Assembly (NCBI GenBank): GCA_014860565.1
Contig: JACZJN010000068.1
Span: forward strand, 23,152 to 87,151
Length of the DNA: 64,000 nucleotides
Direction of reading: 5' to 3'
DNA from: Bacteroidota bacterium
GTDB lineage: Bacteria > Bacteroidota > Ignavibacteria > SZUA-365
Part shown: positions 41,744 through 58,765 of the stretch, piece by piece
Layout of the letters: each line of letters starts with the position of its first letter
Position numbering within the stretch: position 1 is the stretch's first letter
Program-made: the position numbers and the translations under genes
Notes under the pieces: generated by a model
Told to the model about the DNA's origin: nothing
Databases searched by the model: none
Seen by the model: the letters and a program-made list of their open reading frames with translations, nothing else

Positions 41744-41804
41744 CCGCTCCTCCCCGCTCCTCCCAGCTCCTTCCGCTCCTCACTGCTCCTCCACGCTCCT
41801 CACT
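41744..41804. repeat. About six tandem copies of a degenerate 10-bp unit (YGCTCCTCMN on the plus strand, GGAGGAGC-rich on the minus strand) at the 3' end of the yfcC-like gene
   Basis: Read directly: cgctcctccc cgctcctccc agctccttc cgctcctcac tgctcctcca cgctcctcac. Confidence 0.5.
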
Positions 41805-43194
41805 GCCAGTGCGCAAGAACCGGCCAGATCAGTAGCAGCAGTGAGAGAATGAAAAAATACACCTGCATCGGCAGATGCCATTTGAACCAGCGTTCGTAGG
41901 GAATTTTCGCCATGGCGAGGGTGCCGATGGTAACGCCGGAGGTGGGAATGATCATGTTGGTGAAGCCGTCACCGAGCTGATAGGCGAGCACGGCGGTTTG
42001 ACGGGTGAGTCCCGACAGATCGGCGAGGGGACCCATCAGCGGCATGGTCAGCGCCGCCTTGGTCGAGCCGGAGGGGATGAAGAAATTCAGCGCCATCTGC
42101 ATGACGTACATGGCGTCGGCCGAAAGCATGCGCGGCAGGTTGGAGGTCATCGAGGAGAGTCCGTAGAGAATCGTGTCCATGATATTGCCGTTCTCCAGCA
42201 CGATAAGGATACCGCCCGCGAACGCGACGACGAGAGCCGCCGAGGCCATGTCCTTGACGCCGAGGATAAAGTTTTTCGCCAGAGTGTTGGGACTCTGTCC
42301 CGCCACGATGCCCGAGACCACACCCATGGCGAGGAACAGCGCGGATAGTTCGGTGATGTACCAACCGAAAACCGATACTCCGACGATCATTCCAACGACG
42401 CCTGCCAGCAGCACCAGCAGGCTCATCACATGCCGCCGCGTGAATGCGCCCTGTTCGCTCTGCTGGCGGAGGATCTCCTCCCGCCGCTTCGTGTCGAGGT
42501 CGTACATGGGACTGCGCGTGGGATCCTTGCGGATTCGCGCGGCATAGATCATGATCCAGGCCGTTGTGCTCGCGGTGACGATCACCCACACGACGATGCG
42601 GTATTCCCAGCCGGAAACGAGGGGAACGCCCGCGAGTCCCTGCGCGATCTGCAGGGTGAAGGGATTCAGGAACGCTCCCGCGAAGCCGACACCGGCCGCA
42701 AGAAAACTGAGTGAGATTCCAACGAAACTGTCGTAGCCCAGCGAGAGCGCGAGAGGAACGAAGATCAGGACAAACGGCATCGCCTCCTCGCACATGCCGA
42801 ACACCGCGCCGAACAGCGAGAAGAAGGTCATGACGATGGGAATGATGAGAATTTCCCTGCCCTTCAGCTTGCGGACAAGCTGATGCGTCCCTGCCGCGAT
42901 GGCCCCGGTTTCATTCAATATATAGAAAGCCCCGCCGACCAGAAAGATAAACGCCACGATTTCCGCCAGGCGCAGGAAACCCTGCATGGGTGCGGTGAAA
43001 ATCTCCAGGAACTGGGGGTGAGACTTTTCGAAGGTGAATGACCCAACCACAGGTACCTGCCGCGTGACGCCGCCTACTTCCTCGCTGACGCGCTCGTACG
43101 ATCCCCCCGGCACGATCCATGTCGCCACCGCCGCCAGGATGATCAGCGTAAATACGATAACAAATACATCGGGGATTTTTTTCTTGATAGACAC
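41800..43194 (-). CDS. yfcC: YfcC-family (C4-dicarboxylate anaerobic carrier-like/putative basic amino acid antiporter) integral membrane transporter
   Basis: GTG start. MSIKKKIPDVFVIVFTLIILAAVATWIVPGGSYERV is the hallmark N-terminus of the YfcC family. About 11-12 TM helices follow. Confidence 0.8.
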   Translation of the reverse strand: MSIKKKIPDVFVIVFTLIILAAVATWIVPGGSYERVSEEVGGVTRQVPVVGSFTFEKSHPQFLEIFTAPMQGFLRLAEIVAFIFLVGGAFYILNETGAIAAGTHQLVRKLKGREILIIPIVMTFFSLFGAVFGMCEEAMPFVLIFVPLALSLGYDSFVGISLSFLAAGVGFAGAFLNPFTLQIAQGLAGVPLVSGWEYRIVVWVIVTASTTAWIMIYAARIRKDPTRSPMYDLDTKRREEILRQQSEQGAFTRRHVMSLLVLLAGVVGMIVGVSVFGWYITELSALFLAMGVVSGIVAGQSPNTLAKNFILGVKDMASAALVVAFAGGILIVLENGNIMDTILYGLSSMTSNLPRMLSADAMYVMQMALNFFIPSGSTKAALTMPLMGPLADLSGLTRQTAVLAYQLGDGFTNMIIPTSGVTIGTLAMAKIPYERWFKWHLPMQVYFFILSLLLLIWPVLAHWQ

Positions 43195-43252
43195 TCAATC
43201 TCCGCCGGCGAACGGCTTCTGCTTCTTCGCTTTCGGCTCTCTGCGAACAGCC

Positions 43253-43318
43253 AACGTCTTCTCCTGCCTCCTGCTTCCTGCTTCCTGCTTCCTGCCTCCT
43301 GCCTCCTGCTTCCTACAT
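43253..43318. repeat. Eight tandem copies of a heptamer (CYTCCTG on the plus strand, CAGGARG on the minus strand) between the sigma-54 regulator stop and the yfcC-like start
   Basis: Read directly: ctcctgc ctcctgc ttcctgc ttcctgc ttcctgc ctcctgc ctcctgc ttcctac. Confidence 0.6.
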
Positions 43319-44743
43319 CTGTGGATCCATCAGCCGGTATTCCTTCACCTTCGTCTGCATGGTCTTGTAATCGATCTGCAGGATGCGGGCGGCCTTGGCC
43401 TTGTTCCAGCCCGTGCGTTTCAGCGTTTCGAGGAGGATTTGCCGTTCGATCTGTGCCGTGTGTTTGCGCACATGATCCTTGAGCGGGACGCCCTGCTCGA
43501 TATCATTCTCGTCGATTTCAGCGATTGCGATGGACGCACGGGCGCGGCGCTCGGCGTCGAGCTCGAGATCGAGATGATCGGTGGTGATGAATTCGTCGGC
43601 GAACAGTACGGCACGGCGCACGACGGCGCGAAGCTGTGCGACGTTCCCCGGCCAATTATATGCCAGCATCTTGTCGAGGGCCTTGGGAGTGAAGCCGTTG
43701 ATGGACTTATTGAGTTCCTTGTTGCTCTCCTGTATGAAGCGCGTCGCCAGATAAGGAATATCTGTCTTTCGCTCACGCAGGGAAGGGACGTGGAAGCTGT
43801 ATTCGTTGAGACGGTAGAAGAGATCCGGCCGGAATTCCTTTTTCTCGATCAGGTCGTGGAGATCCTTGCTCGTCGAAACAATGAGGCGGGCGTCAACCGG
43901 TATGGGTGTCTCGCTGCCGAGACGTGTGAGCGTGCGCGTCTGCAGGCTGCGGAGCAGTCGCGACTGCTGCCGCTGCGGGAAGGCGGAAACTTCATCGAGG
44001 AAGAGCGTTCCACTGTGCGACTGTTCCCACTTCCCCTGCTGCGTGTTGGCTGCCCCCGAAAAGGCACCGCGCTCGAATCCGAACAGTTCACGCTCCATCA
44101 TCGATTCGGAGAGCGCGTCGCACGCGATGGTGATAAAGGGTTTGGTCGCGCGGGGACTGGCGTCATGAAGGGCTTTGGCGACCAACGCCTTGCCCGTGCC
44201 CGGTTCTCCCGTGACGAGGATATCGAATTTCGTTCCGGCAATGCGCTTGATCGTCGTCACAAGTTCCATGATCACGTCGCTGGTGCCCATGCGCTGCAGC
44301 AACTCGTCCTGCTGCTGTTGGGGTTCTGCTTTCGGCTCCTGATATTTCCGCCGCATCAAGCGCTCGTCAAGCGCACGGGAGAGGAACTGAATCATCTCCC
44401 CCGTCTCGAATGGTTTGGCAATATAATCGAAGGCGCCTGCCTTCATCGCGTCCACGGCACCCGGGACACCCGCAAGCGCAGTCATGAACATCACGGGAAT
44501 CTCCGGATTGATGCGCCGCATCCTGAGCATGACCTCCCTGCCGTCCATGCCAGGCATGAGCACGTCGAGGACAACGGCATCGGGCGTTTCACGGCGGAAG
44601 AGTTCCAGTGCGGTATCTCCATCCAATGCCATCATGGCCGTCAATCCCTGCCGTTCAAACAAACGCTTGAGGAGGATGCACATATCCTCTTCATCGTCAA
44701 CGATGAGGATTTTCATTCCGCGATATTTTTCAAGCCCATCCAT
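43313..44743 (-). CDS. Sigma-54-dependent Fis-family response regulator (REC + AAA+ sigma-54 activator + HTH)
   Basis: REC domain (KILIVDDEEDM...LDVLMPGMDG). Walker A GEPGTGK. GAFTGA-type loop variant (ERGAFSGA). Arginine finger region. C-terminal HTH AARILQIDYKTMQTKVKEY. Confidence 0.85.
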   Translation of the reverse strand: MDGLEKYRGMKILIVDDEEDMCILLKRLFERQGLTAMMALDGDTALELFRRETPDAVVLDVLMPGMDGREVMLRMRRINPEIPVMFMTALAGVPGAVDAMKAGAFDYIAKPFETGEMIQFLSRALDERLMRRKYQEPKAEPQQQQDELLQRMGTSDVIMELVTTIKRIAGTKFDILVTGEPGTGKALVAKALHDASPRATKPFITIACDALSESMMERELFGFERGAFSGAANTQQGKWEQSHSGTLFLDEVSAFPQRQQSRLLRSLQTRTLTRLGSETPIPVDARLIVSTSKDLHDLIEKKEFRPDLFYRLNEYSFHVPSLRERKTDIPYLATRFIQESNKELNKSINGFTPKALDKMLAYNWPGNVAQLRAVVRRAVLFADEFITTDHLDLELDAERRARASIAIAEIDENDIEQGVPLKDHVRKHTAQIERQILLETLKRTGWNKAKAARILQIDYKTMQTKVKEYRLMDPQM

Positions 44744-45233
44744 GAGGGGCCTCCAACTGTAACGAGTGCACTAAAATACGGGAGAAGAGTATCTTTTTCA
44801 ACATCAACAGGGATATTATTCCCTTATTTTTTTGTCAGGAAGTCCCTGGCTGTTTGCGCTCGGACAGCACGTATCCGCCGCAGGAGAATACTCAGCCGTT
44901 GAGAACTGAACTCACCGGCCGAGAACTGATGATATATGCAACAACGAACGTTGAAATATACAACAGCACTTTAATTCAATCATATCAATTACTTAGCACT
45001 CTTTTCCCACGCAGAGGCGGTTTTGCCATGTTGAGTTATTCAACACAACCTCTGATTCGGTCATTGGCGCCAGAGAGCGGTAAAGTCCCATATATCCTTG
45101 CGTTACAATCACTTACATCGATTTACGGGAAGCGGAGGTCCAGCGATTTTATCTGGCAAGGTAGTTGTAGTGTATTTCAACAGTTGATTGTTGAATCACA
45201 CAACAACTCACCACCAGAAATCTGGAGTTCGTC
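44744..45233 (+). promoter_or_regulatory. AT-rich intergenic regulatory island upstream of the GcvH-fold/FeS/NrfD operon, with repeated TTCAACA/TGTTGAA palindromic sites and a sigma-54-like -24/-12 element
   Basis: The GC content drops sharply relative to the flanks. Palindrome GTTGAgttatTCAAC lies at about 45031-45047. An imperfect 13-bp inverted repeat gtgtatttcaaca-N6-tgttgaatcacac lies at about 45163-45196. TGGCAA-N5-TTGTA at 45154-45169 resembles the sigma-54 consensus TGGCAC-N5-TTGCA. GGAG Shine-Dalgarno 8 nt before the ATG at 45234. Confidence 0.4.
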
Positions 45234-45908
45234 ATGGTTGCCTTATTCGTCATTCTGTTCGTCGTTTTGCTGCTTGGCATCGATCTGTTCATACAGGCGC
45301 GCAGCAAACAGTATCCCATCATGGCAGCTGCTCCCGCAGGACAGGCATATACGCCCGACCGGGAGACGCTGCGAATTCCGAAAAGCGTCTTTTTCCATCC
45401 CGGACACACTTGGGCACGCCTGCAGGATGGCGATTCCCTTGAAGTCGGCATTGATGATTTCGTCCAGAAAGCACTGGGCGGCATCGACCGGGTCCTGCTT
45501 CCCAACGTCGGAGAGTTTGTCCGCCAGGGCGATGCCGTGATCACCGTCGGTCATCACGACAAGCAGCTCACGCTCGTTGCGCCTGCAAGCGGCTACGTGC
45601 GCTCGGTCAATCGCGACGCTGTGGAGAATCCGGGTATGGTCAGCGAAAATCCGTATCGCGATGGCTGGCTCATGATGATCGAGCCCGCTGAACTCGCAAG
45701 CAACCTCAGCGTACTGCATGTGGCTGAAAACGCAGTGTCCTGGATCAAGGAAGAAGTGAAACGTTTCCGCGAGTTTCTCAACGCAAGCGCTGCCGAGCCG
45801 GCACTGGTTGGAGAGGCGATGTTCGACGGCGGTGCCCCCATGGCCGGCGTGCTCGAGCAGCTCGACGACAAGCATGTGCTCGATTTCGAGCAGCAATTCC
45901 TGCGGTAG
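45234..45908 (+). CDS. Membrane-anchored glycine-cleavage H-protein-like (GcvH-fold) protein
   Basis: N-terminal TM helix MVALFVILFVVLLLGIDLFI. The remainder aligns by eye to GcvH: GHTWARLQDGDSLEVGIDDFVQKALGGIDRVLLPNVGEFV...VITVGHHDKQLTLVAPASGYVRSVN...NPYRDGWLMMIEP, versus GcvH HEWV...VGITDHAQ..LGDIVFVELPEVG...ESVKAASDIYAPVSGEVV.VN...PYG.GWLFK. A Lys sits near the lipoyl-lysine position. Confidence 0.6.
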   Translation: MVALFVILFVVLLLGIDLFIQARSKQYPIMAAAPAGQAYTPDRETLRIPKSVFFHPGHTWARLQDGDSLEVGIDDFVQKALGGIDRVLLPNVGEFVRQGDAVITVGHHDKQLTLVAPASGYVRSVNRDAVENPGMVSENPYRDGWLMMIEPAELASNLSVLHVAENAVSWIKEEVKRFREFLNASAAEPALVGEAMFDGGAPMAGVLEQLDDKHVLDFEQQFLR

Positions 45909-45965
45909 GATTCCGCACTCTCGTGTTTTCACTTTCTTTCACCATGGAATTCAGGAGACAGACTC

Positions 45966-46871
45966 ATGCCACACGCCATTCTCGTTGACCTGACCGAATG
46001 CGTGGGATGCGGCGCCTGCCGTGACGCCTGCCAGCAGGTTCATCATTTCCCGCAGGAAGAGTGCACATCCCTCGATGCCCACAATTTCACCACGCTCCGC
46101 AAAATCGAAACCGCGGACGGGCAGGAAGTCTTCGCCCGCCAGATGTGCCAGCACTGCCAGGATCCCGCCTGCGCGTCTGCATGTCTGGTGGGGGCGCTCG
46201 AAAAAACCCGCGACGGCGCGGTCACATGGGACACCGACAAATGCATCGGCTGCCGTTACTGCATGGTTGCCTGCCCGTTCGATATTCCCAAGTACGAGTG
46301 GGACACCAACAATCCCAAGGTGCGCAAATGCACCATGTGTTATACGGAACGCCATCTGGACGCGGATTCGAAGACCGATAAAGAGGGATACGTGCTCGAT
46401 CGCAGCGGGAAGCGCGTCAGTATCGACGGACGCCTGGTCACCGCGGAAGATCGCGACATGATCGTCGAGATGACCACGAACAGCGACGGCAAGCGTGCCA
46501 CGGCCTGTAGCGTGGCCTGCCCCATCGGCGCGACTCTCTACGGAGAACGCTCCGAATTGCTCGCCGAGGCGCACCGCCGCATTCGCAGCAACCCCGATTC
46601 GTACGTGCAGAAAGTCTACGGGCAGACAGAAGTGGGCGGGACGTCCGTGTTCTACCTCTCCAGCATGCCGTTTGAGCAGCTCGGCTTCTCGACGAAGCTC
46701 GACACCGAAGCACTCCCGCTGCGCACCTGGCGCGTCCTCGAAAAACTGCCGGACGTCATTCTGACCGCAGGCGTCGCGCTCGGCGCGGTGTACTGGATCA
46801 CCAATCGGCGCGAGGATGTGCGGAAGTTCGAAGAGGAAGTGAAGAATCAACGCTCACAAAAGAAATCCTGA
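45966..46871 (+). CDS. 4Fe-4S ferredoxin-type iron-sulfur subunit of the PsrB/DmsB/HybA family (four cluster motifs) with C-terminal TM anchor; no Tat signal
   Basis: Cluster motifs CVGCGACRDAC, CQHCQDPACASAC, CIGCRYCMVACP and CTMC. C-terminal hydrophobic helix VILTAGVALGAVYWI. AGGAGA Shine-Dalgarno. Confidence 0.8.
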   Translation: MPHAILVDLTECVGCGACRDACQQVHHFPQEECTSLDAHNFTTLRKIETADGQEVFARQMCQHCQDPACASACLVGALEKTRDGAVTWDTDKCIGCRYCMVACPFDIPKYEWDTNNPKVRKCTMCYTERHLDADSKTDKEGYVLDRSGKRVSIDGRLVTAEDRDMIVEMTTNSDGKRATACSVACPIGATLYGERSELLAEAHRRIRSNPDSYVQKVYGQTEVGGTSVFYLSSMPFEQLGFSTKLDTEALPLRTWRVLEKLPDVILTAGVALGAVYWITNRREDVRKFEEEVKNQRSQKKS

Positions 46872-46881
46872 GGAGGACGCA

Positions 46882-48102
46882 ATGAAATCCTTTCTGTCCC
46901 GTATCACATTCTGGAAAGCGACAGCTGCGGTTTTCCTCCTTGGCGGACTGGCCACAACGATCGTCCGTTTCGGCTGGGGACTCGGTGCGTCGACCAATCT
47001 GAGCGACATGACTCCATGGGGATTGTGGATCGGCTTCGACGTCGTGACCGGCGTCGGACTGGCTGCAGGCGGCTTTACACTTGCCGGCATCGTGCACATT
47101 TTCCATATCAAGCGCTTCCATCCGATCGTGCGTCCCGCTATCCTGACCGCGTTCCTGGGCTACTGCCTGGTCATCGTCGGACTGATGTTCGACCTCGGGC
47201 GTCCATGGGCGATCTGGCATGCGCTCATCTATCAGAATCCCCATTCGGTGCTGTTCGAAGTCGCCATGTGCGTGATGACCTATACCGCAGTACTCGCCCT
47301 CGAGTTCTCACCGGTCGTGCTTGAGCGCTTCCACCTTCACAAGTTGCTGAAATTTGTCAAGGCCATCACCGTTCCCCTGATCATTCTCGGCATCCTGCTC
47401 TCCATGCTGCATCAGTCTTCCCTCGGCTCGCTCTACCTGATCGTGCCGCAGAAAATGCACCCGTACTGGTATTCACCGATGCTGCCCGTGCTCTTCTTCG
47501 TCAGCGCCGTGGCCGTGGGACTCGGCATGACCATCGTCGAGTCGTACCTGAGCGCCCGTGCATTCCAGAAAACACTCGAGACGCCTCTGCTGCGAGATCT
47601 CACTCGCATCATGATCGGCGTGCTGCTCGTGTATTTCACTATGCGCGCAATCGATCTCTTCCACCGCAACGCGTTTGGGTTCCTTCTCGACGGCAGCTTC
47701 GAAACCATGATGCTGTACCTGGAAGTCGCCTTCATGCTGATCATTCCCCTGCTGCTCTTCAATCTTCGCGAATGGGGACGCTCACGCCAGGGACTGTTCT
47801 TCACGGCGTTTTCCGTCGTGCTCGGCTTCATCACCAACCGGCTGAACGTGACGATGACCTCCCTGGAAGGCTACTATAAGACCAATTTTGGGGTCTCGTA
47901 CTTCCCCGGCATCGGTGAACTCGCAGTTACCATTTCAATCGTGACCGTGGGCTTCGTGATCTTTGCGCTTGCGGTGAAGTATCTCCCGATTTTCCCTCAT
48001 CATGAGGAAGAAACCGTGCTACGGTTCGACGGCGCCCCGGCGCGCACGAATGAGAGCGCTTCCATGCACGCGACACCGGCGGCCGAACTGCGGCGCCACT
48101 GA
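46882..48102 (+). CDS. NrfD/PsrC-family polysulfide-reductase-type integral membrane (quinone-interacting) subunit
   Basis: About 10 TM helices with the NrfD-family pattern (WGLWIGFDVVTGVGLAAGGF..., LGRPW). GAGGAGG Shine-Dalgarno. Follows the FeS gene after a 10-nt gap. Confidence 0.8.
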   Translation: MKSFLSRITFWKATAAVFLLGGLATTIVRFGWGLGASTNLSDMTPWGLWIGFDVVTGVGLAAGGFTLAGIVHIFHIKRFHPIVRPAILTAFLGYCLVIVGLMFDLGRPWAIWHALIYQNPHSVLFEVAMCVMTYTAVLALEFSPVVLERFHLHKLLKFVKAITVPLIILGILLSMLHQSSLGSLYLIVPQKMHPYWYSPMLPVLFFVSAVAVGLGMTIVESYLSARAFQKTLETPLLRDLTRIMIGVLLVYFTMRAIDLFHRNAFGFLLDGSFETMMLYLEVAFMLIIPLLLFNLREWGRSRQGLFFTAFSVVLGFITNRLNVTMTSLEGYYKTNFGVSYFPGIGELAVTISIVTVGFVIFALAVKYLPIFPHHEEETVLRFDGAPARTNESASMHATPAAELRRH

Positions 48103-48109
48103 GGCTGAT

Positions 48110-48164
48110 GCCGGCTGCGATGCAGCGCACAACACCCGTGCACCGCAGCCGGCTGCATTTTTCC
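48110..48164 (+). terminator. Rho-independent terminator after the NrfD-like gene
   Basis: 10-bp stem gccggctgcg (48110-48119) pairs with cgcagccggc (48144-48153) across a 24-nt loop, followed by tgcattttt. Confidence 0.6.
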
Positions 48165-48222
48165 CTCGATCTGTATCATGTCTTCGTTTGATAAACTCCG
48201 GAAGATTCCAAGGCGGTCGGCA

Positions 48223-49005
48223 ATGAGCGTCATAATCGATACATCGTGCGATAACTGTGTCTGGGTGACTGCAGGCGTGCTCAACTACAAGTTGTGCGAC
48301 CGCGACTTTGACTGCGAACATTGTCCCCTCGATGCAGCCTTACGCGATCGCGCGAGCAGTTGTGTGGATAATGAAACCACACTATCCATGGCACGGCTTG
48401 ATTTTCCTGGCTGGAACGACCTGCCCGCCGAAGTCCAGCCGCTGCTCGAGCCTCTGCGCTCGCTGCAGCTCTGCCAGAGCGCCCGGTATTCCGCGCGTCA
48501 TGTCTGGGTGCGCCTCCTCGCATCCGGCATGGTGCGTCTGGGACTTGATAGTTTTGCCGCCGCCCTGCTTCCGGACGACGCTCAGCTCGTAACTGTCGCA
48601 CATAACACCGTATTGCGGGAAGGGGAGGCTTTTGGATGGGTCTATGCGTGGAATCAGACGCTTCCTCTCCCCGCACCTATTTCAGGTATGGTGGTCTGCC
48701 GCAACGGCGGACATCACGACTCGGTGGACAAGCTTCGTACAAGCCCGTATCGCGACGGATGCCTGCTCACGCTTTCCCCTTCCGTCGGTACGCTGGCTAC
48801 CGCACGCGTGTATTCTCCGGCAGTGCACTCAGGACGCATCCAACGTCACTGCCGCTCCATCGCCGGGAAGGTTGATCGTGCACTCGCCCATGCGGAACTC
48901 GGGCTCTGCCTCAACGACGGTGGTGAAGCAGTCCGTTCCCTCCCCCAGATGCTTGGTCAGGACCGTTACTGGAAGCTGATCAAACATTTCATTGGAGGAG
49001 AATAA
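48223..49005 (+). CDS. Second GcvH-fold paralog with Cys-rich (zinc-ribbon-like) N-terminus
   Basis: N-terminal C-x2-C-x12-C-x5-C-x2-C (SCDNCVWVTAGVLNYKLCDRDFDCEHCP). The GcvH-like region HVWVRLLASGMVRLGLDSFAAALLPDDAQLVTV...APISGMVVCRN...SPYRDGCLLTL is paralogous to 45234..45908. The start may alternatively be the ATG at 48178. Confidence 0.5.
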   Translation: MSVIIDTSCDNCVWVTAGVLNYKLCDRDFDCEHCPLDAALRDRASSCVDNETTLSMARLDFPGWNDLPAEVQPLLEPLRSLQLCQSARYSARHVWVRLLASGMVRLGLDSFAAALLPDDAQLVTVAHNTVLREGEAFGWVYAWNQTLPLPAPISGMVVCRNGGHHDSVDKLRTSPYRDGCLLTLSPSVGTLATARVYSPAVHSGRIQRHCRSIAGKVDRALAHAELGLCLNDGGEAVRSLPQMLGQDRYWKLIKHFIGGE

Positions 49006-49073
49006 GGTCCTCTTCCTTGATAGGCAAGGCCGGGTTCACTAGATTGTGAACAGCATCAATCGAGGAGTGCAGG

Positions 49074-50681
49074 ATGCGGCTCTATCACACGCTCAGTTTC
49101 AAGCTCATCTCTCTTATTTTCTTCGCGCTGCTCGTGGTCACGCTCGGGGTGAGCTACGTGCATGTCGAGGCGCAGAGTTCGTTTCTCGAACGGACAGTGC
49201 ACCTCTGTGCCGAGCGGGCAAGCGCCTTCGCCAAAGCCGCCCTGCTCCAGGGAATGCAGGAAAACCACCCCGACGTTATTCGACAGACTATTTACGATAT
49301 CGGTGTCGCGCGTGGAATCGAGCGCATCAGCATCTACGACAAGAACGGTCGGATCGCCTACTCCTCGGCGCTCGCCGAAGTAAACCGCGTCGTCGACACC
49401 AAGGATCTTGCCTGCGCACCCTGTCATGGCGAAAGTTCGGATTTCACGCAAACGAGCAGCGAAGAATTCATGCGCATCTACGATTCCGATCAGGGACATC
49501 GCGTGCTCGGACTGATCACCCCGATCAAGAACATGCCGTCCTGCGCCGACGCCGCCTGCCACGTGCACCCCGCCGAACAGACCGTCCTTGGCGTGCTCGA
49601 CGTGCACATGTCTCTCGCAAGCATCGACGCACAGGCTGCCAAGGTGCGTACAGTCGTGATACTCTCCTCCCTGCTTACATTTATCATCCTCGCTGCGGGT
49701 ACTGCTGTTTTTGTGTTCTTCTTCGTACACAAACCCGTCAAGTCTGTGATCGAGGGAACACATAAGCTCGCAACGGGAGATCTCGAGCATACCATCCCGC
49801 TCAAGCGCAAGGATGAGCTGGGACAGCTGGTCAAATCCTTCAACCGCATGGCCCACGAACTCGGGCGTACCAAGGGGCAGCTCGTCGAATGGTCGAATAC
49901 ACTCGAGGACAAGGTCGCCGCGAAAACCGAGGAACTCAACAAGGTACAGGCGCAAATCCTGCATATGGAAAAAATGGCGTCACTCGGAAAACTGAGTTCC
50001 GTCATCGCGCATGAACTCAACAATCCGCTCGCCGGGATTCTGACATATGCGCGTCTGATCGAGAAGCGGCTCGACAAACGTGAGCTTGACGAAGCGAAAT
50101 GCGCTGTGATGCAAAAGGATGTCGTGCTGATCGCCGAGGAGGCGCGTCGATGCGGCGATATCGTCAAAAACCTGCTCTTCTTCGCACGCGGACGCGAGGG
50201 CGAATACCGACAGGCAGATCTCAACGAGGTCATTGAGAAAACCATCAAGCTGGTACACCACAAGATCGATCTTTACGAAATCCGGCTCGAGGTGCATGTA
50301 CCCACCGAAACCGTGCTTGCGACCTGCGATCAGAATCAGATTCAGCAGGCGGTGCTCGCCATCATCATGAATGCGATCGAAGCGATGCCGGAGGGTGGCC
50401 GTCTGGCGGTTTCATTGTCCCATGATGAGACAAACGCCAGCATACGCGTCTCCGATACGGGCGTGGGAATTTCCGAATCCGATCAGCGCATGATTTTCGA
50501 ACCGTTCTTCACAACAAAGGAAGAAGGACACGGCACAGGGCTCGGCCTCTCCGTTGCCTATGGCATTATCCAGAGCCATGAAGGGCGCATCACCGTCGAC
50601 AGCACGCCTGGAAAGGGTGCGACGTTCACCATCATCATTCCCATTTTCGGTCCCGCTTCATATCGGCAGGAGAACGCATGA
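49074..50681 (+). CDS. Sensor histidine kinase with periplasmic domain carrying two c-type heme-binding motifs
   Basis: N-terminal TM helix, then a periplasmic region with CAPCH (CXXCH) and CADAACH (CX4CH, as in cytochrome c3). A second TM helix (VVILSSLLTFIILAAGTAVFVFFFV) is followed by HAMP, HisKA H-box SVIAHELNNPLAGI and HATPase G-boxes (SDTGVGI, GTGLGLS). Confidence 0.8.
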   Translation: MRLYHTLSFKLISLIFFALLVVTLGVSYVHVEAQSSFLERTVHLCAERASAFAKAALLQGMQENHPDVIRQTIYDIGVARGIERISIYDKNGRIAYSSALAEVNRVVDTKDLACAPCHGESSDFTQTSSEEFMRIYDSDQGHRVLGLITPIKNMPSCADAACHVHPAEQTVLGVLDVHMSLASIDAQAAKVRTVVILSSLLTFIILAAGTAVFVFFFVHKPVKSVIEGTHKLATGDLEHTIPLKRKDELGQLVKSFNRMAHELGRTKGQLVEWSNTLEDKVAAKTEELNKVQAQILHMEKMASLGKLSSVIAHELNNPLAGILTYARLIEKRLDKRELDEAKCAVMQKDVVLIAEEARRCGDIVKNLLFFARGREGEYRQADLNEVIEKTIKLVHHKIDLYEIRLEVHVPTETVLATCDQNQIQQAVLAIIMNAIEAMPEGGRLAVSLSHDETNASIRVSDTGVGISESDQRMIFEPFFTTKEEGHGTGLGLSVAYGIIQSHEGRITVDSTPGKGATFTIIIPIFGPASYRQENA

Positions 50682-52036
50682 CCGCCTTTGATCCCTCGGA
50701 TATCACCATCATGATCGTCGACGATGAACCCAGCGTACGGCAATCGCTGGCCGCCTGGTTCGAGGATGACGGCTACTCCATTGTCACCGCACAAAATGCA
50801 GCCGAAGCCCTGCAATGCATGCAGGAACACAGCGTGGACATCATTCTTCTCGACATCAAGATGCCTGGCATGGATGGACTCGCTCTGCAGGACAGAATCC
50901 GGGAATTCAACCAGCAAGTCATCATCATCATCATCACGGCGTTTGCTACGGTCGACACCGCGGTACGAGCACTCAAAGCCGGTGCCTTTGACTATACGAC
51001 GAAGCCGGTCGATCCCGACGAACTATCTCACCTGGTGCTGAACGCCGTTGATAAAATCCGATTGCAGCGCGAGAACCTCGCCCTGCGCGAGAGCATCGAC
51101 CATCTGCAGTTCGTTGACGACATCATAGGCGAAAGCGGTCCGATGCAGCAGGTACTCGAACTGGTCAAAACGGTGGCTCCGACGGATTCCACTGTGCTGA
51201 TATTGGGAGAAAGCGGCACCGGGAAGGAACTCATCGCGCGGGCCATTCACATGAACAGCCGGCGGCGCTACTTCCCCATCATCCCGGTCAACTGCGGCGC
51301 ATTGCCCGAATCCCTGCTCGAAAGCGAATTATTCGGTCACGAGAAGGGTGCCTTTACCGGTGCCCAGTACCGCCGCAAGGGCAAATTCGAAATGGCGCAG
51401 GGCGGATCGCTGTTTCTCGATGAAATCGGAACCCTGAGCCTGAAATCACAGATCGACCTGCTCCGCGTGCTCGAAGACCGCGAATTTCATCGGCTCGGCG
51501 GCGAGCGCACGGTGAAAGCAGATTTTCGCCTTATCTGCGCGACAAACGTGGACCTGGAAAAGGAAGTAAAAAGCGCCGTTTTCCGGGAGGATTTATACTA
51601 TCGCGTGAACGTATTCACCATTACCCTTCCACCTCTGCGTGAACGACGTGCAGACATTCCCCTGCTTGCTTCGCACTTCGTGGAGCGCCACGCGCGTTCG
51701 ATGAACCGCCCGGCGCCGGAACTGAGTTCAGAAGCGATGGACGTGCTGCTCACACATGACTGGCCCGGCAATGTCCGTGAGTTGGAAAACGCGATCGAAC
51801 GTGCGGTGGTGATCAACAAAACCGGCATCATCACGCCGGATGATCTGCCCGTTCAGGTGGGGAGAAACAGCGTTCCACCGCGCGGGTCCTCGCTCTCCGA
51901 AATGGAGGAAGAGCATATCAGTCATATGCTGGAAGAGAACAACTGGAATATCTCGCGGACAGCAGAGAAATTGGGCATAGACCGCGTCACGCTCTACAAT
52001 AAAATCGAAAAGTACGGTCTGAAGCGTCCAGAATAA
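50678..52036 (+). CDS. Sigma-54-dependent Fis-family response regulator (NtrC-like)
   Basis: Overlaps the kinase gene by ATGA. REC domain (IMIVDDEPSV...LDIKMPGMDG). Walker A GESGTGKE. GAFTGA motif. C-terminal HTH TAEKLGIDRVTLYNKIEKY. Confidence 0.85.
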   Translation: MTAFDPSDITIMIVDDEPSVRQSLAAWFEDDGYSIVTAQNAAEALQCMQEHSVDIILLDIKMPGMDGLALQDRIREFNQQVIIIIITAFATVDTAVRALKAGAFDYTTKPVDPDELSHLVLNAVDKIRLQRENLALRESIDHLQFVDDIIGESGPMQQVLELVKTVAPTDSTVLILGESGTGKELIARAIHMNSRRRYFPIIPVNCGALPESLLESELFGHEKGAFTGAQYRRKGKFEMAQGGSLFLDEIGTLSLKSQIDLLRVLEDREFHRLGGERTVKADFRLICATNVDLEKEVKSAVFREDLYYRVNVFTITLPPLRERRADIPLLASHFVERHARSMNRPAPELSSEAMDVLLTHDWPGNVRELENAIERAVVINKTGIITPDDLPVQVGRNSVPPRGSSLSEMEEEHISHMLEENNWNISRTAEKLGIDRVTLYNKIEKYGLKRPE

Positions 52037-52578
52037 TGTCCGGCGTGAGGGAAGTCACCGTCATACCGCTGGGCACACATCCGCGCGATGTGTCTCTTGA
52101 AGAGCTGCGATCCGGCATCGAGCAGATTCTGCCCGTCCGCATCACCATCAGGCCTCGACCGGTTGACATAGACTCGGCGCTCGACGCCTCCCGCAAGCAA
52201 TACCACTCCACATCCGTTCTCGCACTCCTCCTGCAGCAGGCCGAGCCGCACACCGAACGCCTTCTCGGCATCACCCCATATGACCTGTTTGTCCCGGTGC
52301 TGACATTCGTGTTCGGCCAGGCGCAGCTCAACAACCTCGCTGCCGTATTCTCCACATTCCGACTGCACAACGAATTCTACGGAATCCCGCGTTCCGGGGA
52401 ACAGCTTGCCGCACGCTGTTTGAAAGAAGCGCTGCACGAACTCGGTCACACCTTCGGCCTGCGGCACTGCATCGATCATCCCTGCGTGATGAATTCCTCC
52501 ACCTACGTCGAGGATATCGATTTGAAGCCTGCGGATTTCTGTTTGCCTTGCCGCGAACATCTGGAAATCGTACTATAA
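52036..52578 (+). CDS. Archaemetzincin-family zinc metallopeptidase (peptidase M54)
   Basis: HELGHTFGLRHCIDHPCVM matches the archaemetzincin HExxHxxGxxHCxxxxCxM signature. Its start codon overlaps the regulator stop codon (TAATG). Confidence 0.75.
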   Translation: MSGVREVTVIPLGTHPRDVSLEELRSGIEQILPVRITIRPRPVDIDSALDASRKQYHSTSVLALLLQQAEPHTERLLGITPYDLFVPVLTFVFGQAQLNNLAAVFSTFRLHNEFYGIPRSGEQLAARCLKEALHELGHTFGLRHCIDHPCVMNSSTYVEDIDLKPADFCLPCREHLEIVL

Positions 52579-52628
52579 GGGAAGTTCAGGGAGAACACCC
52601 GTTTTTTCGACATATCCAGGGAGACATC

Positions 52629-53987
52629 ATGAGCACCTCATGGTTATTTCGCATGTGCCTTTTCGGTGCATGCACCGCCCTTCAGTGCATTCCTTCCGCG
52701 GCCCAACCATGGCATTACGATTTCGGAAATGCCACAGGCACTCATGCGAGCGGCGTCAGCACTTCATTCATGCCATCCCCTCCTTCGGGAAGTGCACGTG
52801 TGCGCATAGGATCGCAGGGCGGGAGTCTGCAACTCCTCAATCCCGGCGATTCCCGTCTGGGCAGCGCGTCCGAGGCCAGGCTGACCGCACCGACCGGATC
52901 ATCGCTGAACAAGATTCAGTGGCACGATTTCGACGGATCACGATGCTTCACACTGCAGACGTGGATCTCGATCGGGGGAGGACCGGGCGACGTGTATTTC
53001 TTCTGTGGAAACGGCAGCTGCTTCAGCGACAATGTCGGTTTTTCGTCGAGCCAGATATTCGCGGGACTGAGGTGGCGCCAGGACAGCAGCGGACTCAGTT
53101 TCTCCATACGAAGCAGCACGGGATGGACTGCGATCACACCTGCGCCGATGCGGACTGACAGCGTGCATCTTCTTGAGGTATACGTCAATAACTCATTCAA
53201 TAGCAACAGTTATACCCGCAGCGGTTCATACACCGCTGCCCCCCTATCCTGCGACATCTGGATCGATGGCGCCCTCGTCGCAGACGATCATCCGGGAGCA
53301 GGTCTGTCCGATAGTCTTGACATCGACTCGTTCATGTTCTACATGGCCGCGAGTCCATCCAACGACTGCACCCTCGCACTGGACGATATCACGTTCACGA
53401 ACAGCATCGCCGTGCAGCCCCTCCCCGTCGAGCTGAGCGCATTCGAGGCACGTCTCCGCGACAGGCAGGTGTGGCTGCGGTGGCGCACGGAGACGGAAAT
53501 GCAGAATTTCGGGTTCGAAATTCAGCGTTCGCGAGCATCGGGAGGTTGGGATATCCTGGGCTTTGTTCCGGGCGACGGCGACAGGCAATCGCCCCGCTGG
53601 TACGAATGGACGGACACGCTGGGAAGTGAATCCGGTAAACTGAGATACAGGCTGCGGCAGATCGACCGCGATGGCAGCAGCACTCTTTCCGAGGAAACCG
53701 TTATTGAAGCGATCAGCACCGACCATGGTCTTCTTCTAGCTCCTCCCTGGCCGAATCCCGCGAGGGATGTTGTCACGTTGCCCATCGTCGCGCCTCACGA
53801 CGGCATTGTCCAAATAGAGATTATCTCGCTCGCAGGTACGCAGGCTGCGATCCTGCCCGCCGTGCGCCTCCTCCCAGCCGGCGCGCAGGATCTGCGCCTG
53901 TCCTGCGGGCATTTGTCCCGCGGTATGCATCTGATTACCGTTCGCAGCGGAGGTGAAATGCGATCCCGACTCCTGCTGCTGATCTGA
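52629..53987 (+). CDS. Secreted protein of unknown function with T9SS C-terminal sorting domain
   Basis: The start is taken at the ATG at 52629 (MSTSWLFRMCLFGACTALQCIPSAAQ signal peptide). The C-terminus LAPPWPNPARDVVTLPIVAPHDGIVQIEIISLAGTQAAILPAVRL...HLITVRSGGEMRSRLLLLI is a T9SS CTD. Confidence 0.65.
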   Translation: MSTSWLFRMCLFGACTALQCIPSAAQPWHYDFGNATGTHASGVSTSFMPSPPSGSARVRIGSQGGSLQLLNPGDSRLGSASEARLTAPTGSSLNKIQWHDFDGSRCFTLQTWISIGGGPGDVYFFCGNGSCFSDNVGFSSSQIFAGLRWRQDSSGLSFSIRSSTGWTAITPAPMRTDSVHLLEVYVNNSFNSNSYTRSGSYTAAPLSCDIWIDGALVADDHPGAGLSDSLDIDSFMFYMAASPSNDCTLALDDITFTNSIAVQPLPVELSAFEARLRDRQVWLRWRTETEMQNFGFEIQRSRASGGWDILGFVPGDGDRQSPRWYEWTDTLGSESGKLRYRLRQIDRDGSSTLSEETVIEAISTDHGLLLAPPWPNPARDVVTLPIVAPHDGIVQIEIISLAGTQAAILPAVRLLPAGAQDLRLSCGHLSRGMHLITVRSGGEMRSRLLLLI

Positions 53988-54064
53988 TTGAACTTCGACG
54001 CTTCACCCGTTGAGCCCGCTTTCTCCCCGCTTCAAAGCGATGCGTGTGCCAACGCGTGCCCTCC

Positions 54065-54131
54065 GTGATGCATTATTTCCAGCTTCCGAACGGAAGTGCA
54101 TTCTCCCGGAAATAATGCATCACGGTTTTTT
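54065..54131 (+). terminator. Hairpin terminator (16-bp perfect inverted repeat with a nested inner palindrome) followed by a T7 run
   Basis: gtgatgcattatttcc (54065-54080) pairs with ggaaataatgcatcac (54108-54123). The loop contains the palindrome cttccgaacggaag. Followed by ggttttttt. Confidence 0.55.
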
Positions 54132-54134
54132 TCT

Positions 54135-54190
54135 TGACAACAGCCGCCCAATGTATTATGTTTATCCACACAGTTTAACCATATGGTTAA
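54135..54190 (+). promoter_or_regulatory. Putative sigma-70-type promoter (TTGACA-N16-TATGTT) plus perfect 16-bp palindromic operator TTAACCATATGGTTAA immediately upstream of the TetR gene
   Basis: TTGACA at 54135-54140. The palindrome ttaaccatatggttaa at 54175-54190 lies between the -10 region and the TetR start (54208), the classic TetR autoregulatory operator position. Confidence 0.45.
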
Positions 54191-54207
54191 TCTATTTGGT
54201 AAACATC

Positions 54208-54840: not shown

Positions 54841-54844
54841 TTTC

Positions 54845-56161: not shown

Positions 56162-56172
56162 GAGACGAATTC

Positions 56173-58761: not shown

Positions 58762-58765
58762 CTAC

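Follow-up and report, generated by a model that had tools for sequence, protein, structure and literature searches.

In Melioribacter roseus, Mros1571 and Mros1572, named the 'NrfCD cluster', were proposed to form a quinol:periplasmic-acceptor oxidoreductase (Kadnikov et al. 2013, PMC3534657). In membrane proteomes of this bacterium the cluster MROS_1567-1572 behaves as one unit: MROS_1567, 1568, 1569 and 1571 were found in 3/3 replicates from anaerobic fermentation vs 0/3 aerobic replicates (adjusted p 0.005-0.008), and the FeS protein MROS_1572 in 2/3 vs 0/3, a difference that is not significant (PMC5492636, Table S2). This cluster can be likened to the operon described here by annotation and gene order only, and its annotation, unlike that of our operon, shows no gene for GcvH1 or for a protease. 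A lipoate-binding protein, LbpA, takes part in a redox system, the sHdr pathway (PMC6067878).

Operon composition and conservation

The window, by which we mean the whole stretch of 64 kb that was analysed, contains a seven-gene operon (45234-52578) with its control region (44927-45205), and the operon is conserved in many phyla. The earlier note on this DNA had described six co-oriented genes between 45234 and 52036. All six are present at these coordinates on the + strand, with the composition that the note gave; the unit is however larger, and its extent was revised twice, by the addition of an archaemetzincin gene (52036-52578) and of the control region. The genes are tightly spaced or overlapping and no internal terminator was found in the operon.

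Genes for a GcvH-fold protein, the FeS protein, the NrfD subunit, a dihaem kinase and a sigma-54 activator were found together in 54/90 loci of about nine phyla (Bacteroidota/Ignavibacteria, Acidobacteriota, Fidelibacterota, Zixiibacteriota, Poribacteria, Eisenbacteria, Thermodesulfobacteriota, Myxococcota and Planctomycetota); the archaemetzincin gene accompanies them in 39 of the 54. Recurrence in so many phyla puts the arrangement far above chance. Four loci (L024, L037, L052 and L067) keep the GcvH, kinase, activator and protease genes without an adjacent FeS-NrfD pair, and therefore the kinase can work without one; pairs of GcvH genes likewise persist where no FeS-NrfD genes adjoin.

The earlier note had seen no molybdopterin, hydrogenase or cytochrome catalytic subunit beside the FeS-NrfD pair; this is true of the operon and also of all 64 kb of the window, where a partner cytochrome for the pair is likewise lacking. 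The literature also bears out its remark that no characterised complex of such composition is known: no paper describes it, and no experimental work was found on any member of the operon. The operon is essentially undescribed.

The FeS and NrfD subunits

The second gene (45966..46871, +) encodes a 301 aa protein of the HmcB/HybA/FdnH type with four [4Fe-4S] clusters and a C-terminal transmembrane helix, the membrane anchor that had been predicted. Its 16 cysteines, arranged in four ferredoxin-type motifs, are all kept across homologues, and comparison with locus L004 revealed a clade-specific insertion of ~45 aa within the fourth motif. The best NCBIfam models were HmcB (223 bits) and HybA (185 bits), both scores being under the respective cutoffs, and the closest solved chain was FdnH (1kqf_B). 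The third gene (46882..48102, +) encodes a 406 aa NrfD-family subunit of the HmcC/HybB type with 10 transmembrane helices and a predicted N-in/C-in topology. It matched Pfam NrfD (PF03916) with 92.7 bits and, again under the cutoffs, the NCBIfam models HmcC (334 bits) and HybB (301 bits).

Relatives have in their operons HmcD (NF045712, 37-38 bits, cutoff 34) as well as cytochromes that contain an HmcA/nine-haem-like domain, and in L077 a NapC/NirT-type cytochrome directly follows the protease gene. Since HmcA-like cytochromes and HmcD persist in relatives, the FeS-NrfD pair of the window is a trimmed, reduced Hmc/Nhc-type module.

The family match of the FeS protein starts at residue 4 and therefore leaves no room for a signal peptide. 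The protein has no Tat signal, and neither the operon nor the window encodes a Tat-signal partner for it. The earlier note had presumed from this that the protein faces the cytoplasm. Several observations point to the opposite side. Counts of Lys/Arg in the loops give the 10-helix, N-in NrfD subunit the same bias as in relatives with a Tat-signal FeS partner, and its conservation is highest in the periplasmic loops. The anchor of the FeS protein is followed by a Lys/Arg-rich tail. Moreover, in one relative the NrfD subunit that accompanies a Tat-less FeS protein is fused to a periplasmic trihaem c7 domain. On this basis the FeS domain is probably periplasmic despite the missing Tat signal. In SoeABC, the known cytoplasm-facing case, the orientation of the membrane subunit would need to be reversed.

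The GcvH-fold proteins

The first gene encodes GcvH1 (45234..45908, +), a protein of 224 aa with a transmembrane helix (residues 2-24), a linker, the GcvH fold (residues ~50-160) and a helical C-terminal tail in which D198-G199-G200 is invariant. GcvH1 matched Pfam GCV_H (PF01597) with 67.8 bits (cutoff 22.2), profile searches of the PDB retrieved H-proteins at E = 1e-28, and the AlphaFold2 model (pLDDT 84) aligned with 1onl in Foldseek at a TM-score of 0.92. The fourth gene encodes GcvH2 (48223..49005, +), a soluble protein of 260 aa with the same DGG tail. Its start was taken as 48223 and not the longer 48178, following the Logan gene call and the relatives. GcvH2 scored 35.6 bits against GCV_H and its model (pLDDT 83.7) gave a TM-score of 0.85 to H-proteins; its family comprises 516 clusters at 50 % identity (E <= 1e-30). 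By hhalign (probability 99.9 %, E = 2e-37) the two proteins are paralogues in the core of the GcvH fold as well as in the C-terminal tail. Both the fold and the paralogy that the earlier note had seen are thus confirmed, and the possibility it raised that these are unrelated folds is contradicted by Pfam and Foldseek alike.

The N-terminal region of GcvH2 contains a Cys4 motif (C12-x12-C25-x5-C31-x2-C34) that is conserved in relatives, with the family consensus C-[VI]-W-M-x-A-G-x3-Y-K-L-C-D-R-x-F-x-C-E-x-C-P-[LF]-D. It is a putative metal site, in a region modelled with low confidence (pLDDT only 53-64).

The suggestion of a lipoyl/biotinyl-like carrier found no support. In the GcvH1 family the lipoyl-lysine column holds Lys in 1/79 members, and the next column holds Arg in 39 and Lys in 25. 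GcvH1 of the window has a Lys, K110, one residue past the canonical position. The GcvH2 family has no conserved Lys at the lipoyl column, and GcvH2 lacks one there altogether. The lipoyl lysine being absent, a swinging-arm carrier is not expected: judged from these columns, GcvH1 is not lipoylatable at the canonical position and neither protein is a lipoyl carrier. No lipoate ligase or lipoyl synthase gene was found next to the operon in the window.

Fusions suggest where these domains reside. HmcD-GcvH fusion proteins occur (residues 3-34 of the L055 protein score 40.1 bits against the HmcD model), and TM-receiver-GcvH fusions adjoin a kinase and a divergent FeS-NrfD pair, without a DNA-binding regulator; in L002 the GcvH domain behind the receiver is the only output of the kinase. 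Together with the Lys/Arg residues that follow the transmembrane helix of GcvH1, the receiver and HmcD fusions lead us to infer that the GcvH domains are cytoplasmic and belong to the complex. The GcvH and FeS domains would then probably lie on opposite membrane sides, which excludes a direct electron relay from one to the other.

The predicted haem kinase and the sigma-54 activators

The fifth gene (49074..50681, +) encodes a sensor histidine kinase composed of TM1, a periplasmic domain of ~160 aa, TM2, HAMP, HisKA and HATPase. The c-type haem motifs reported earlier are indeed present between the two helices, as CXXCH (CAPCH, residue 114) and CX4CH (CADAACH, residue 157). Nearly all homologues have both, 34-51 residues apart and 43 in most. 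M61, H118 and H163 are invariant and H165 is conserved at 93 %; the invariant Met and the further conserved His could be the sixth haem ligands. The sensor domain resembled the Geobacter haem-c sensor domain (PF21563) weakly, with a score below the threshold. This kinase is a predicted two-haem sensor. Relatives having multihaem cytochromes keep it too, and therefore it is not a simple replacement for a lost cytochrome.

The sixth gene (50678..52036, +), whose start overlaps the kinase stop by 4 nt, encodes an NtrC-type response regulator with a receiver (Response_reg, 118 bits), a sigma-54 AAA+ domain with GAFTGA (Sigma54_activat, 234 bits) and a Fis-type HTH (HTH_8, 51 bits). The best-scoring models were ZraS/AtoS for the kinase and ZraR/AtoC for the activator. 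The second sigma-54 activator noted upstream (43313..44743, -) is real by its Pfam domains and divergently transcribed, with 35 % identity to the operon activator. However, it is a lineage-specific neighbour outside the conserved core: close relatives (L008-L020) alone have it, accompanied by a DcuC/YfcC transporter (41800-43194 in the window).

The control region

Three palindromes TGTTGAA-N3-TTCAACA (44927-44943, 44949-44965 and 45029-45045, +) precede the operon and are presumed to be upstream activating sites for its sigma-54 activator. They are followed by a predicted promoter, the sigma-54-type -24/-12 element TGGCAAGGTAGTTGTA (45154..45169, +), ~65 nt before the first start codon. The window has six matches of the palindrome type, five of them within 44927-45205, and 0/100 shuffles reached six. 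When 12 related upstream regions are aligned, the upstream palindromes prove conserved; across the loci, 102 sites were found in 41.7 kb of upstream DNA vs 22 in 1047 kb elsewhere, a 116-fold enrichment. A search for GG-N10-(G/T)(C/T), in the form xGG(C/T)A-N6-T(T/G)G(C/T), placed the -24/-12 element before the first GcvH gene in 54/85 loci vs 0.07 expected per 480 nt, and among close relatives its distance is conserved. Against the model, the -12 element in the window is TTGT, not TTGC.

The conserved -24/-12 element and upstream palindromes back the sigma-54 control proposed earlier, and the operon appears to be sigma-54-dependent and self-activating. Two more palindrome-like sites (45166-45182 and 45189-45205, +), also kept in close relatives, overlap the promoter or sit just downstream of it, where autorepression or a site for the second activator are possibilities.

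The archaemetzincin and the DGG tail

The seventh gene (52036..52578, +), whose start codon overlaps the activator stop, encodes an archaemetzincin (peptidase M54) with the motif HEXXHXXGXXHCX4CXM...CXXC intact. It scored 152.9 bits against NCBIfam archmetzin (cutoff 145) and 74 bits against Pfam M54. The gene adjoins the kinase/activator pair in 39 loci, and 47/48 archaemetzincin copies have the full catalytic motif. GcvH proteins without the DGG tail are limited to protease-less loci (L002, L088, L091 and L092) and to L093, of which the flank past the activator gene was not recovered; this correlation comes from few lineages and has one exception (L048).

Proposed function and alternatives

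We suggest that the operon most likely encodes a self-induced, redox-responsive quinone module, an explanation that in its full form seems to us to have about an even chance of being right. The four-cluster FeS protein would be docked on the 10-helix, quinone-interacting NrfD subunit, and the two-haem domain of the kinase, exposed to the periplasm, would report the redox state of the periplasm or of the quinone pool. Because the kinase is the sole haem protein encoded in the operon, the FeS-NrfD pair would be the most likely partner of its haems in electron exchange; the haem-to-FeS contact fails if the FeS domain is cytoplasmic. The kinase would set the phosphorylation state of the activator, which would bind TGTTGAA-N3-TTCAACA and open the -24/-12 promoter, so that the whole module, sensor included, would be induced under reducing or anaerobic conditions; the detection of the M. 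roseus cluster in anaerobic replicates alone would agree with this if the two are orthologous. The GcvH-fold proteins may be cytoplasmic, membrane-associated adaptor or regulatory subunits, GcvH1 tethered by its helix and GcvH2 bearing the Cys4 metal site, that connect the NrfD complex to the signalling proteins. The archaemetzincin may act on or bind their DGG-containing tail.

A plainer, inducible respiratory module is conceivable, though we consider it rather unlikely. FeS-NrfD would be a two-subunit quinol:periplasmic-acceptor oxidoreductase, as Kadnikov et al. read Mros1571/1572 (PMC3534657), and would deliver electrons to multihaem cytochromes, soluble or outer, whose genes lie elsewhere. 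The kinase and activator would control expression only, and the GcvH-fold proteins and archaemetzincin would serve in assembly or maturation, for instance by helping the Tat-less FeS protein into or across the membrane; the export of this protein leaves room for dedicated helpers. The multihaem cytochromes in relatives' operons and the NapC/NirT-type one of L077 agree with this, and so does the self-targeted regulation of the operon, which suits an effector controlled by a two-component system. Fusion to a structural subunit, as in HmcD-GcvH, would however be unusual for a maturation factor, and so would a place behind a receiver as a kinase's only output, as in L002; the GcvH sets that persist without adjacent FeS-NrfD genes and the lack of a partner cytochrome in the window also count against it. 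Less probable still is a stress system of the Psp/Zra kind for the envelope or the proton-motive force, in which the GcvH-fold proteins, tethered to the membrane, restrain the activator, as PspA restrains PspF, until the archaemetzincin frees or destroys them upon a disturbance signalled by the NrfD complex or the haem kinase, FeS-NrfD being mainly a sensor and not an energy-conserving enzyme. The ZraS/AtoS and ZraR/AtoC scores, the autoregulation and the loci without FeS-NrfD speak for it, as does the co-inheritance of the DGG tail with a cytoplasmic protease whose active site is intact. Yet nothing resembling PspA, ZraP or another known anti-activator emerged from profile and fold searches, the L002 GcvH domain is a phosphorelay output and not an inhibitor of a DNA-binding regulator, and conservation of all 16 cluster-binding Cys argues for real electron transfer.

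The model of the earlier note, with a cytoplasm-facing FeS protein and GcvH-fold proteins as lipoyl/biotinyl swinging arms that connect the metabolism of the cytoplasm with the quinone pool by shuttling reducing equivalents via FeS-NrfD, now seems very improbable. The authentic GcvH fold, the absence of a Tat signal and of a Tat partner nearby, K110 and the LbpA precedent (PMC6067878) are in its favour. Opposed to it are the lysine columns, the lack of adjoining lipoate genes, an NrfD subunit that is not inverted relative to those with Tat-exported partners and is most conserved in its periplasmic loops, and the NrfD-c7 fusion beside a Tat-less FeS protein.

Comparison with known systems

The earlier note had allowed that the whole cluster might match a known complex. 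This holds for its FeS and NrfD subunits, which are of the HmcB/HmcC type that the window shares with Hmc/Nhc, although the multihaem cytochrome and HmcD, still present in relatives, are missing from the module of the window. The layer of GcvH-fold proteins, kinase, activator and protease is uncharacterised and lies outside every characterised Hmc/Nhc complex.

Gene content and distribution of the operon

The genes at 45234-52578 form a real, widespread and apparently self-regulated operon, whose respiratory core is of a known kind, an Hmc/Nhc-type pair of FeS protein and NrfD subunit. The earlier note had named a match to an Hmc-type module as an argument against a new kind of complex. Such a match was found for the FeS-NrfD core but not for the layer built around it, since the GcvH-fold subunits, the dihaem kinase, the conserved activator site and the archaemetzincin are undescribed in this setting.

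The six genes first named at 45234-52036 were all found on the + strand. GcvH1 (45234-45908, 224 aa) has an N-terminal hydrophobic helix and scored 67.8 bits against GCV_H (PF01597, cutoff 22.2). It is followed by the FeS protein (45966-46871, 301 aa), which has four ferredoxin motifs, by the NrfD subunit (46882-48102; PF03916, 92.7 bits, cutoff 25.8) and by GcvH2 (48223-49005, 260 aa; GCV_H, 35.6 bits, cutoff 22.2). The last two of the six encode a HAMP-HisKA-HATPase kinase (49074-50681) and an activator composed of a receiver, a sigma-54 AAA+ domain and a Fis-type HTH (50678-52036). The unit is larger than was stated at first, as the archaemetzincin gene (52036-52578, + strand) and the upstream control elements also belong to it. 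The start of the archaemetzincin gene coincides with the stop codon of the activator gene, all genes of the operon overlap or stand 10-120 nt apart (the NrfD gene lies 10 nt past the FeS gene), and no terminator-like sites above chance were found within the operon. The same gene calls were obtained for the identical contig in a public run. Two further window ORFs, 43034-44902 (+, 622 aa) and 45243-45932 (-, 229 aa), run antisense to the upstream sigma-54 regulator and to GcvH1, respectively, and were discarded as high-G+C artefacts and not genes.

A search with GcvH1 recovered a membrane-anchored family whose proteins are about 224 aa long. With one genome scanned per species, 80 loci were obtained, to which more contigs were added through relatives, and gene content was set by iterative searches over all ORFs of these loci. 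The conservation of the neighbourhood, which the earlier note had wanted to see examined in related genomes, proved extensive: GcvH, FeS protein, NrfD subunit, dihaem kinase and sigma-54 activator are all present in 54 of the 90 loci, most of the remainder ending at contig edges, and 39 of the 54 also hold the archaemetzincin. Going by record titles, the hosts belong to Bacteroidota/Ignavibacteria (including Ignavibacterium album and Melioribacteraceae), Acidobacteriota, Fidelibacterota, Zixiibacteriota, Poribacteria, Eisenbacteria, Thermodesulfobacteriota, Anaeromyxobacteraceae and Planctomycetota, and one member (AFH50128.1) comes from a cultured type strain, I. album JCM 16511. Four loci (L024, L037, L052 and L067) keep the GcvH gene or genes, kinase, activator and archaemetzincin with no adjoining FeS-NrfD pair. 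No description of the cluster was found in the literature on NrfD with GcvH, archaemetzincin with sigma-54, GcvH-like proteins or the I. album genome, and it is absent from a review of the NrfD family.

Promoter, activator and sensor kinase

The sigma-54 control proposed earlier is supported by sequence features, namely a -24/-12 element at 45154-45169 (+ strand), in which the -12 part reads TTGT, and five TGTTGAA-N3-TTCAACA palindromes at 44927-45205, upstream of the operon. The whole 64 kb window has six palindrome matches, of which these are five, and that total was reached in no shuffle. An N4 spacer gave chance-level matches only, N3 being the right spacing. Of 85 loci, 54 have a sigma-54-type element ahead of the first GcvH gene, compared with 0.07 expected per 480 nt, and for the palindrome 102 sites were counted in 41.7 kb of upstream DNA versus 22 in 1047 kb elsewhere. 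The enrichment is 116-fold and is found in 52 of 87 loci, which represent several phyla, and phylogenetic footprinting of 12 close relatives showed the same blocks.

The activator matched the Pfam receiver (118 bits), sigma-54 AAA+ (234 bits) and Fis-type HTH (51 bits) domains and contains EKGAFTGA, features by which it is assigned to the NtrC-type sigma-54 enhancer-binding response regulators. The simplest reading is that this activator would bind the palindromes and that the operon would induce itself.

In the kinase, a CXXCH and a CX4CH motif stand 34-51 residues apart (43 in most) in almost every homologue, and both are also kept in operons that have multihaem cytochromes of their own. M61, H118 and H163 do not vary among the homologues, and 93% of these keep H165. 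This pattern fits two six-coordinate haems and would suit a redox sensor rather than a gas sensor. The family PF21563 gave sub-threshold scores of 14.2 bits for the window protein and about 26 for two relatives (cutoff 27), a sequence search of the PDB returned no solved structure for the sensor, and a homology search with the sensor domain returned four proteins only.

GcvH-fold proteins

That the FeS-NrfD pair is accompanied by two paralogous GcvH-fold proteins, as the earlier note had read from the sequence, agrees with the above-cutoff PF01597 matches and with structure prediction. AlphaFold2 models of GcvH1 and GcvH2 (pLDDT 84) gave Foldseek TM-scores of 0.92 and 0.85, respectively, to solved H-proteins and of 0.75-0.79 to GcvH-L (5a35), and a profile-profile comparison of the two families returned a probability of 99.9% across the core and the common C-terminal tail. 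This helical tail of about 60 aa carries in both families an invariant D-G-G (D198-G199-G200 in GcvH1) within a low-confidence loop. GcvH2 has in addition a conserved N-terminal motif, C-x12-C-x5-C-x2-C within C[VI]WMxAGxxxYKLCDRxFxCExCP[LF]D, which is probably a metal site, this region being modelled at low confidence. The Cys4-type family comprises at least 516 clusters at 50% identity (E <= 1e-30).

It had also been supposed that these proteins act as lipoyl or biotinyl-like swinging arms, and here the alignment speaks against the earlier view. The column of the lipoyl lysine in solved H-proteins is occupied by G, D or N, and one member of 79 has Lys there. In the column after it, 39 members have Arg and 25 have Lys, and it is there that K110 of the window protein falls. 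No Lys is conserved at the hairpin in the GcvH2 family, and the equivalog GcvH model TIGR00527 scored 68 and 30 bits for the two proteins, below its cutoff of 115.85. Judged by these residues, the GcvH-fold proteins are not lipoyl carriers.

The most informative variants of the family are fusions. Some Acidobacteriota have a GcvH protein whose TM helix and GcvH domain are separated by a receiver domain (P0064 of locus L002). This TM-receiver-GcvH protein (L002:8001-9125; the same arrangement occurs in the related proteins P0062, P0065 and P0068) is encoded directly after the dihaem kinase and adjoins a divergent FeS-NrfD pair; it has no DGG tail, and the L002 locus has no DNA-binding regulator or sigma-54 activator and no archaemetzincin. 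A third subtype starts with an HmcD-type TM helix and was found in five loci (L055:10871-11581, L046:10848-11540, L047:10858-11577, L089:11875-12579 and L092:12347-12934). Residues 3-34 of the L055 protein scored 40.1 bits against the curated HmcD model (cutoff 34), the L046 and L047 proteins fell just under the cutoff, and the model gave no match in L089, so that L089 and L092 are placed in this subtype by visual N-terminal likeness only. In L091 and L093 a stand-alone HmcD gene is found at this same point of the operon. Because of the receiver fusion, the HmcD fusion and the Lys/Arg residues that follow the TM helix in window-type GcvH proteins, the GcvH domains are placed in the cytoplasm and on the complex. 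The idea that GcvH1 might be a Tat escort for the FeS protein was rejected, since GcvH1 lacks a twin-arginine motif and has its domain in the cytoplasm.

L088, L089 and L091 contain a fourth subtype, which has a two-helix hairpin. There are moreover tandem pairs of TM-anchored GcvH-fold genes that stand as orphans (L032:7295-8678, L080:6418-7806, L027 and L033), with no FeS, NrfD or kinase genes in the recovered flanks (about 8 kb per side in L032 and L080, shorter in L027 and L033). The neighbours of the L032 pair are unrelated (ABC transporter, 5'-nucleotidase, TauE and EamA). Upstream of this pair there are a sigma-54 element and palindromes, and upstream of those of L027 and L080 a sigma-54 element only.

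The FeS-NrfD pair and its side of the membrane

The best curated match of the FeS protein was HmcB (NF045715), with 223 bits against an equivalog cutoff of 420, and that of the NrfD subunit was HmcC (NF045714), with 334 bits against 550. Second best were HybA (185 bits, cutoff 263) and HybB (301 bits, cutoff 450). The closest solved chain to the FeS protein is FdnH (1kqf_B), and no PDB sequence match was obtained for the NrfD subunit, in which ten helices are predicted.

A Tat signal is present on the FeS protein of nine related loci (L006, L046, L047, L055, L088, L089 and L091-L093), and most loci with such a Tat-type protein also encode an HmcA/nine-haem-like multihaem cytochrome, some of them HmcD as well. 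The FeS-NrfD family is therefore Hmc/Nhc-type. The cytochrome and HmcD are represented in L091, L093, L055 and L088, and relatives whose HmcD scores above the curated cutoff of the NCBIfam model and whose cytochrome has the HmcA/nine-haem-like domain show the order FeS-NrfD-HmcD-cytochrome. Both subunits are absent from the window, where no HmcA, HmcD, HmcE or HmcF was found, and the window copy is therefore seen as a reduced derivative, from which, by this comparison, cytochrome, HmcD and Tat signal have disappeared. In two loci the Tat-type FeS gene has a small gene ahead of it, L006:4457-4681 (74 aa, Cys-containing, Anaeromyxobacteraceae) and L092:9952-10185 (77 aa, two-helix membrane protein). 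In the window FeS protein a charged-rich insertion of about 45 aa (46345-46490, residues about 128-175) splits the fourth cluster motif; it is shared by the close relatives (299-308 aa) and absent from the 251-259-aa homologues of other clades.

The FeS protein begins MPHAILVDLTECVGCGAC, with an in-frame stop just 5' of it, and its curated match runs from residue 4, which leaves no space for a signal peptide. For want of a Tat signal the earlier note had placed the protein in the cytoplasm, but four kinds of evidence point the opposite way. Over 47 aligned NrfD homologues the Lys/Arg bias was 18.7 versus 4.4 where the partner is Tat-less and 15.0 versus 4.0 where it bears a Tat signal. As the bias is equal in both, the NrfD subunit would in both cases be a 10-helix protein with N and C termini inside, and an inverted, SoeC-like NrfD, which would have matched a cytoplasmic FeS protein, was dropped. 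The predicted periplasmic NrfD loops 1-2, 3-4 and 5-6 are the most conserved and are common to the Tat-type relatives. The C-terminal anchor of the FeS protein ends in a tail of about 26 aa, with 4.5 Lys/Arg after the helix versus 2.3 before it. Finally, in locus L090 the NrfD protein (6360-7970) runs via an eleventh TM helix into a C-terminal trihaem cytochrome c7 domain, which must be periplasmic, and the FeS gene beside this fusion (5599-6363) has no Tat signal either. On balance the FeS protein is the likelier to be periplasmic, with no Tat signal or partner to explain its export. FdnH likewise lacks a Tat signal of its own and is exported by hitch-hiking on the Tat-bearing FdnG; it has the same architecture as the window FeS protein, but no FdnG-like or other Tat-signal partner was found in the operon or the 64 kb window.

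Archaemetzincin

The product of the last gene belongs to the archaemetzincins (M54; NF033823, 152.9 bits, cutoff 145) and has the complete motif HEXXHXXGXXHCX4CXMX17CXXC (HELGHTFGLRHCIDHPCVM...CLPC), which is intact in 47 of the 48 homologues of these loci. Its presence goes together with that of the DGG tail. Both occur in 39 loci, including the Tat-type L006 and L089, with L048 as the one exception. The GcvH proteins of L002, L088, L091, L092 and L093 are without the tail, and no protease was found in these five loci, the flank of L093 past the activator gene being outside the recovered DNA. That the protease acts on or binds the DGG tail is a lead suggested by this co-occurrence, which is confounded by phylogeny. 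Little is known about archaemetzincins (PMC3427221), and in the literature searched we found no physiological role, substrate or pathway for them.

Neighbouring genes

In the window clade the operon is preceded on the - strand by a DcuC/YfcC-type carrier and an extra sigma-54 regulator (41800-44743). An AbgT-type carrier was found in a Melioribacteraceae MAG (L077:5500-7026) and a malic enzyme in Acidobacteriota (L002:1835-3403 and L004:5399-7753). These recurring carboxylate genes may indicate a link to C4-dicarboxylate metabolism, or may be coincidence. In the same MAG a NapC/NirT-type tetrahaem cytochrome gene (L077:15180-15800) directly follows the archaemetzincin.

Just downstream of the operon, 52548-53987 (+ strand) encodes a protein (452-479 aa) whose N-terminus resembles a signal peptide and for which Pfam gave no match. 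It is kept at this site only in the close relatives of the window (44-65% identity). Beyond it, 54010-61068 (+ strand) contains a TetR-family regulator, an outer-membrane efflux protein (OEP) and an ABC transporter ATPase, followed by ORFs with one ATPase-like start and two hydrophobic, permease-like products. This looks like an ordinary efflux locus, unrelated to the operon.

Proposed working and significance

We hypothesize that the haem kinase senses redox state, that the operon would be induced through its own sigma-54 activator, that the GcvH-fold proteins would serve as cytoplasmic adaptors of the NrfD complex and that the protease would work on their tail. This mechanism is coherent with all of the fusions and correlations.

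A bolder and rather improbable reading would make the lipoyl-less GcvH proteins a new class of cytoplasmic regulatory subunits on NrfD modules, set by the dihaem kinase and by a tail-processing archaemetzincin, with an undescribed route of FeS export. The input of the kinase would then be direct, through the fused receiver, or indirect, through the sigma-54 activator, and docking would in some lineages take the form of HmcD fusions. If true, a two-component system would gate a respiratory quinone module post-translationally, and a bacterial archaemetzincin would have its first physiological substrate.

NrfD-type modules are a main link of periplasmic redox chemistry to the quinone pool in anaerobes, and their regulation is poorly understood. 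The operon offers a compact circuit of dihaem sensor kinase, a palindrome conserved across phyla and predicted to bind the activator, and a sigma-54 promoter, together with a new accessory protein family that is physically tied to the complex in other lineages. It also gives bacterial archaemetzincins a functional context and poses an export puzzle, a C-tail-anchored four-cluster protein that looks periplasmic without Tat signal or partner.

Some physiological information exists for Melioribacter roseus, whose 'NrfCD cluster' (Mros1572/1571) was suggested to give electrons to periplasmic cytochromes (PMC3534657). In its membrane proteome the sigma-54 regulators MROS_1567 and 1568, the kinase MROS_1569 and the NrfD-like protein MROS_1571 were detected in 3/3 replicates of anaerobic fermentation and in none of the aerobic ones (adjusted p 0.005-0.008), and MROS_1572 (FeS) in 2/3 anaerobic and 0/3 aerobic replicates (PMC5492636 Table S2). 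This cluster appears to match the operon by gene order and is taken as supporting evidence only. With I. album and probably M. roseus as cultured hosts, direct testing is possible.

Comparison with known systems

The closest relatives of the core are the Hmc and Nhc complexes of sulfate reducers (HmcABC(D), NhcABCD), and the core would be expected to do what they do, exchange electrons between periplasmic carriers and menaquinone. In the described Hmc/Nhc complexes, however, there is no counterpart of the GcvH-fold subunits, the dihaem kinase, the sigma-54 activator or the archaemetzincin. HybA, FdnH and the window FeS protein are all four-cluster proteins with a C-terminal TM anchor, and HybB, from E. 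coli hydrogenase 2, resembles the window subunit as an NrfD-type partner with ten helices; the operon was found to hold neither hydrogenase nor formate dehydrogenase genes, and the window no hydrogenase.

With H-proteins, LbpA and GcvH-L (of Staphylococcus and Streptococcus) the window pair shares the fold, and it keeps the H-protein landmarks H-x-W, VG-I-D/T-D and PY-x-x-GW. It differs in the unconserved lipoyl Lys, in the TM helix or Cys4 motif and in the DGG tail of about 60 aa, and its partners are NrfD/FeS and a two-component system instead of GcvT/GcvP, sHdr or SirTM. The GcvH of TIGR00527 is soluble and of about 125-130 aa, whereas the window proteins are longer (224 and 260 aa) and extended at the C-terminus. 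In sHdr sulfur oxidation, LbpA is lipoylated and encoded with sHdr genes and dedicated lipoate ligases; neither Hdr-like genes nor lipoate ligases turned up in the operon or among the scanned flanking genes of the window.

The kinase resembles Geobacter GSU0582/GSU0935 (PF21563) in having, between two TM helices, a periplasmic sensor domain with haem-c motifs, but with two such motifs (CXXCH and CX4CH) where the Geobacter type has one. The operon shares with NtrC/ZraSR systems the HAMP-HisKA-HATPase kinase, the receiver/AAA+/Fis-HTH activator, the -24/-12 promoter and the upstream palindromes. The archaemetzincin shares the full signature of AmzA and AMZ1/2, and differs from them in that its gene is coupled in translation to that of a sigma-54 activator and inherited along with DGG-tailed GcvH-fold proteins.
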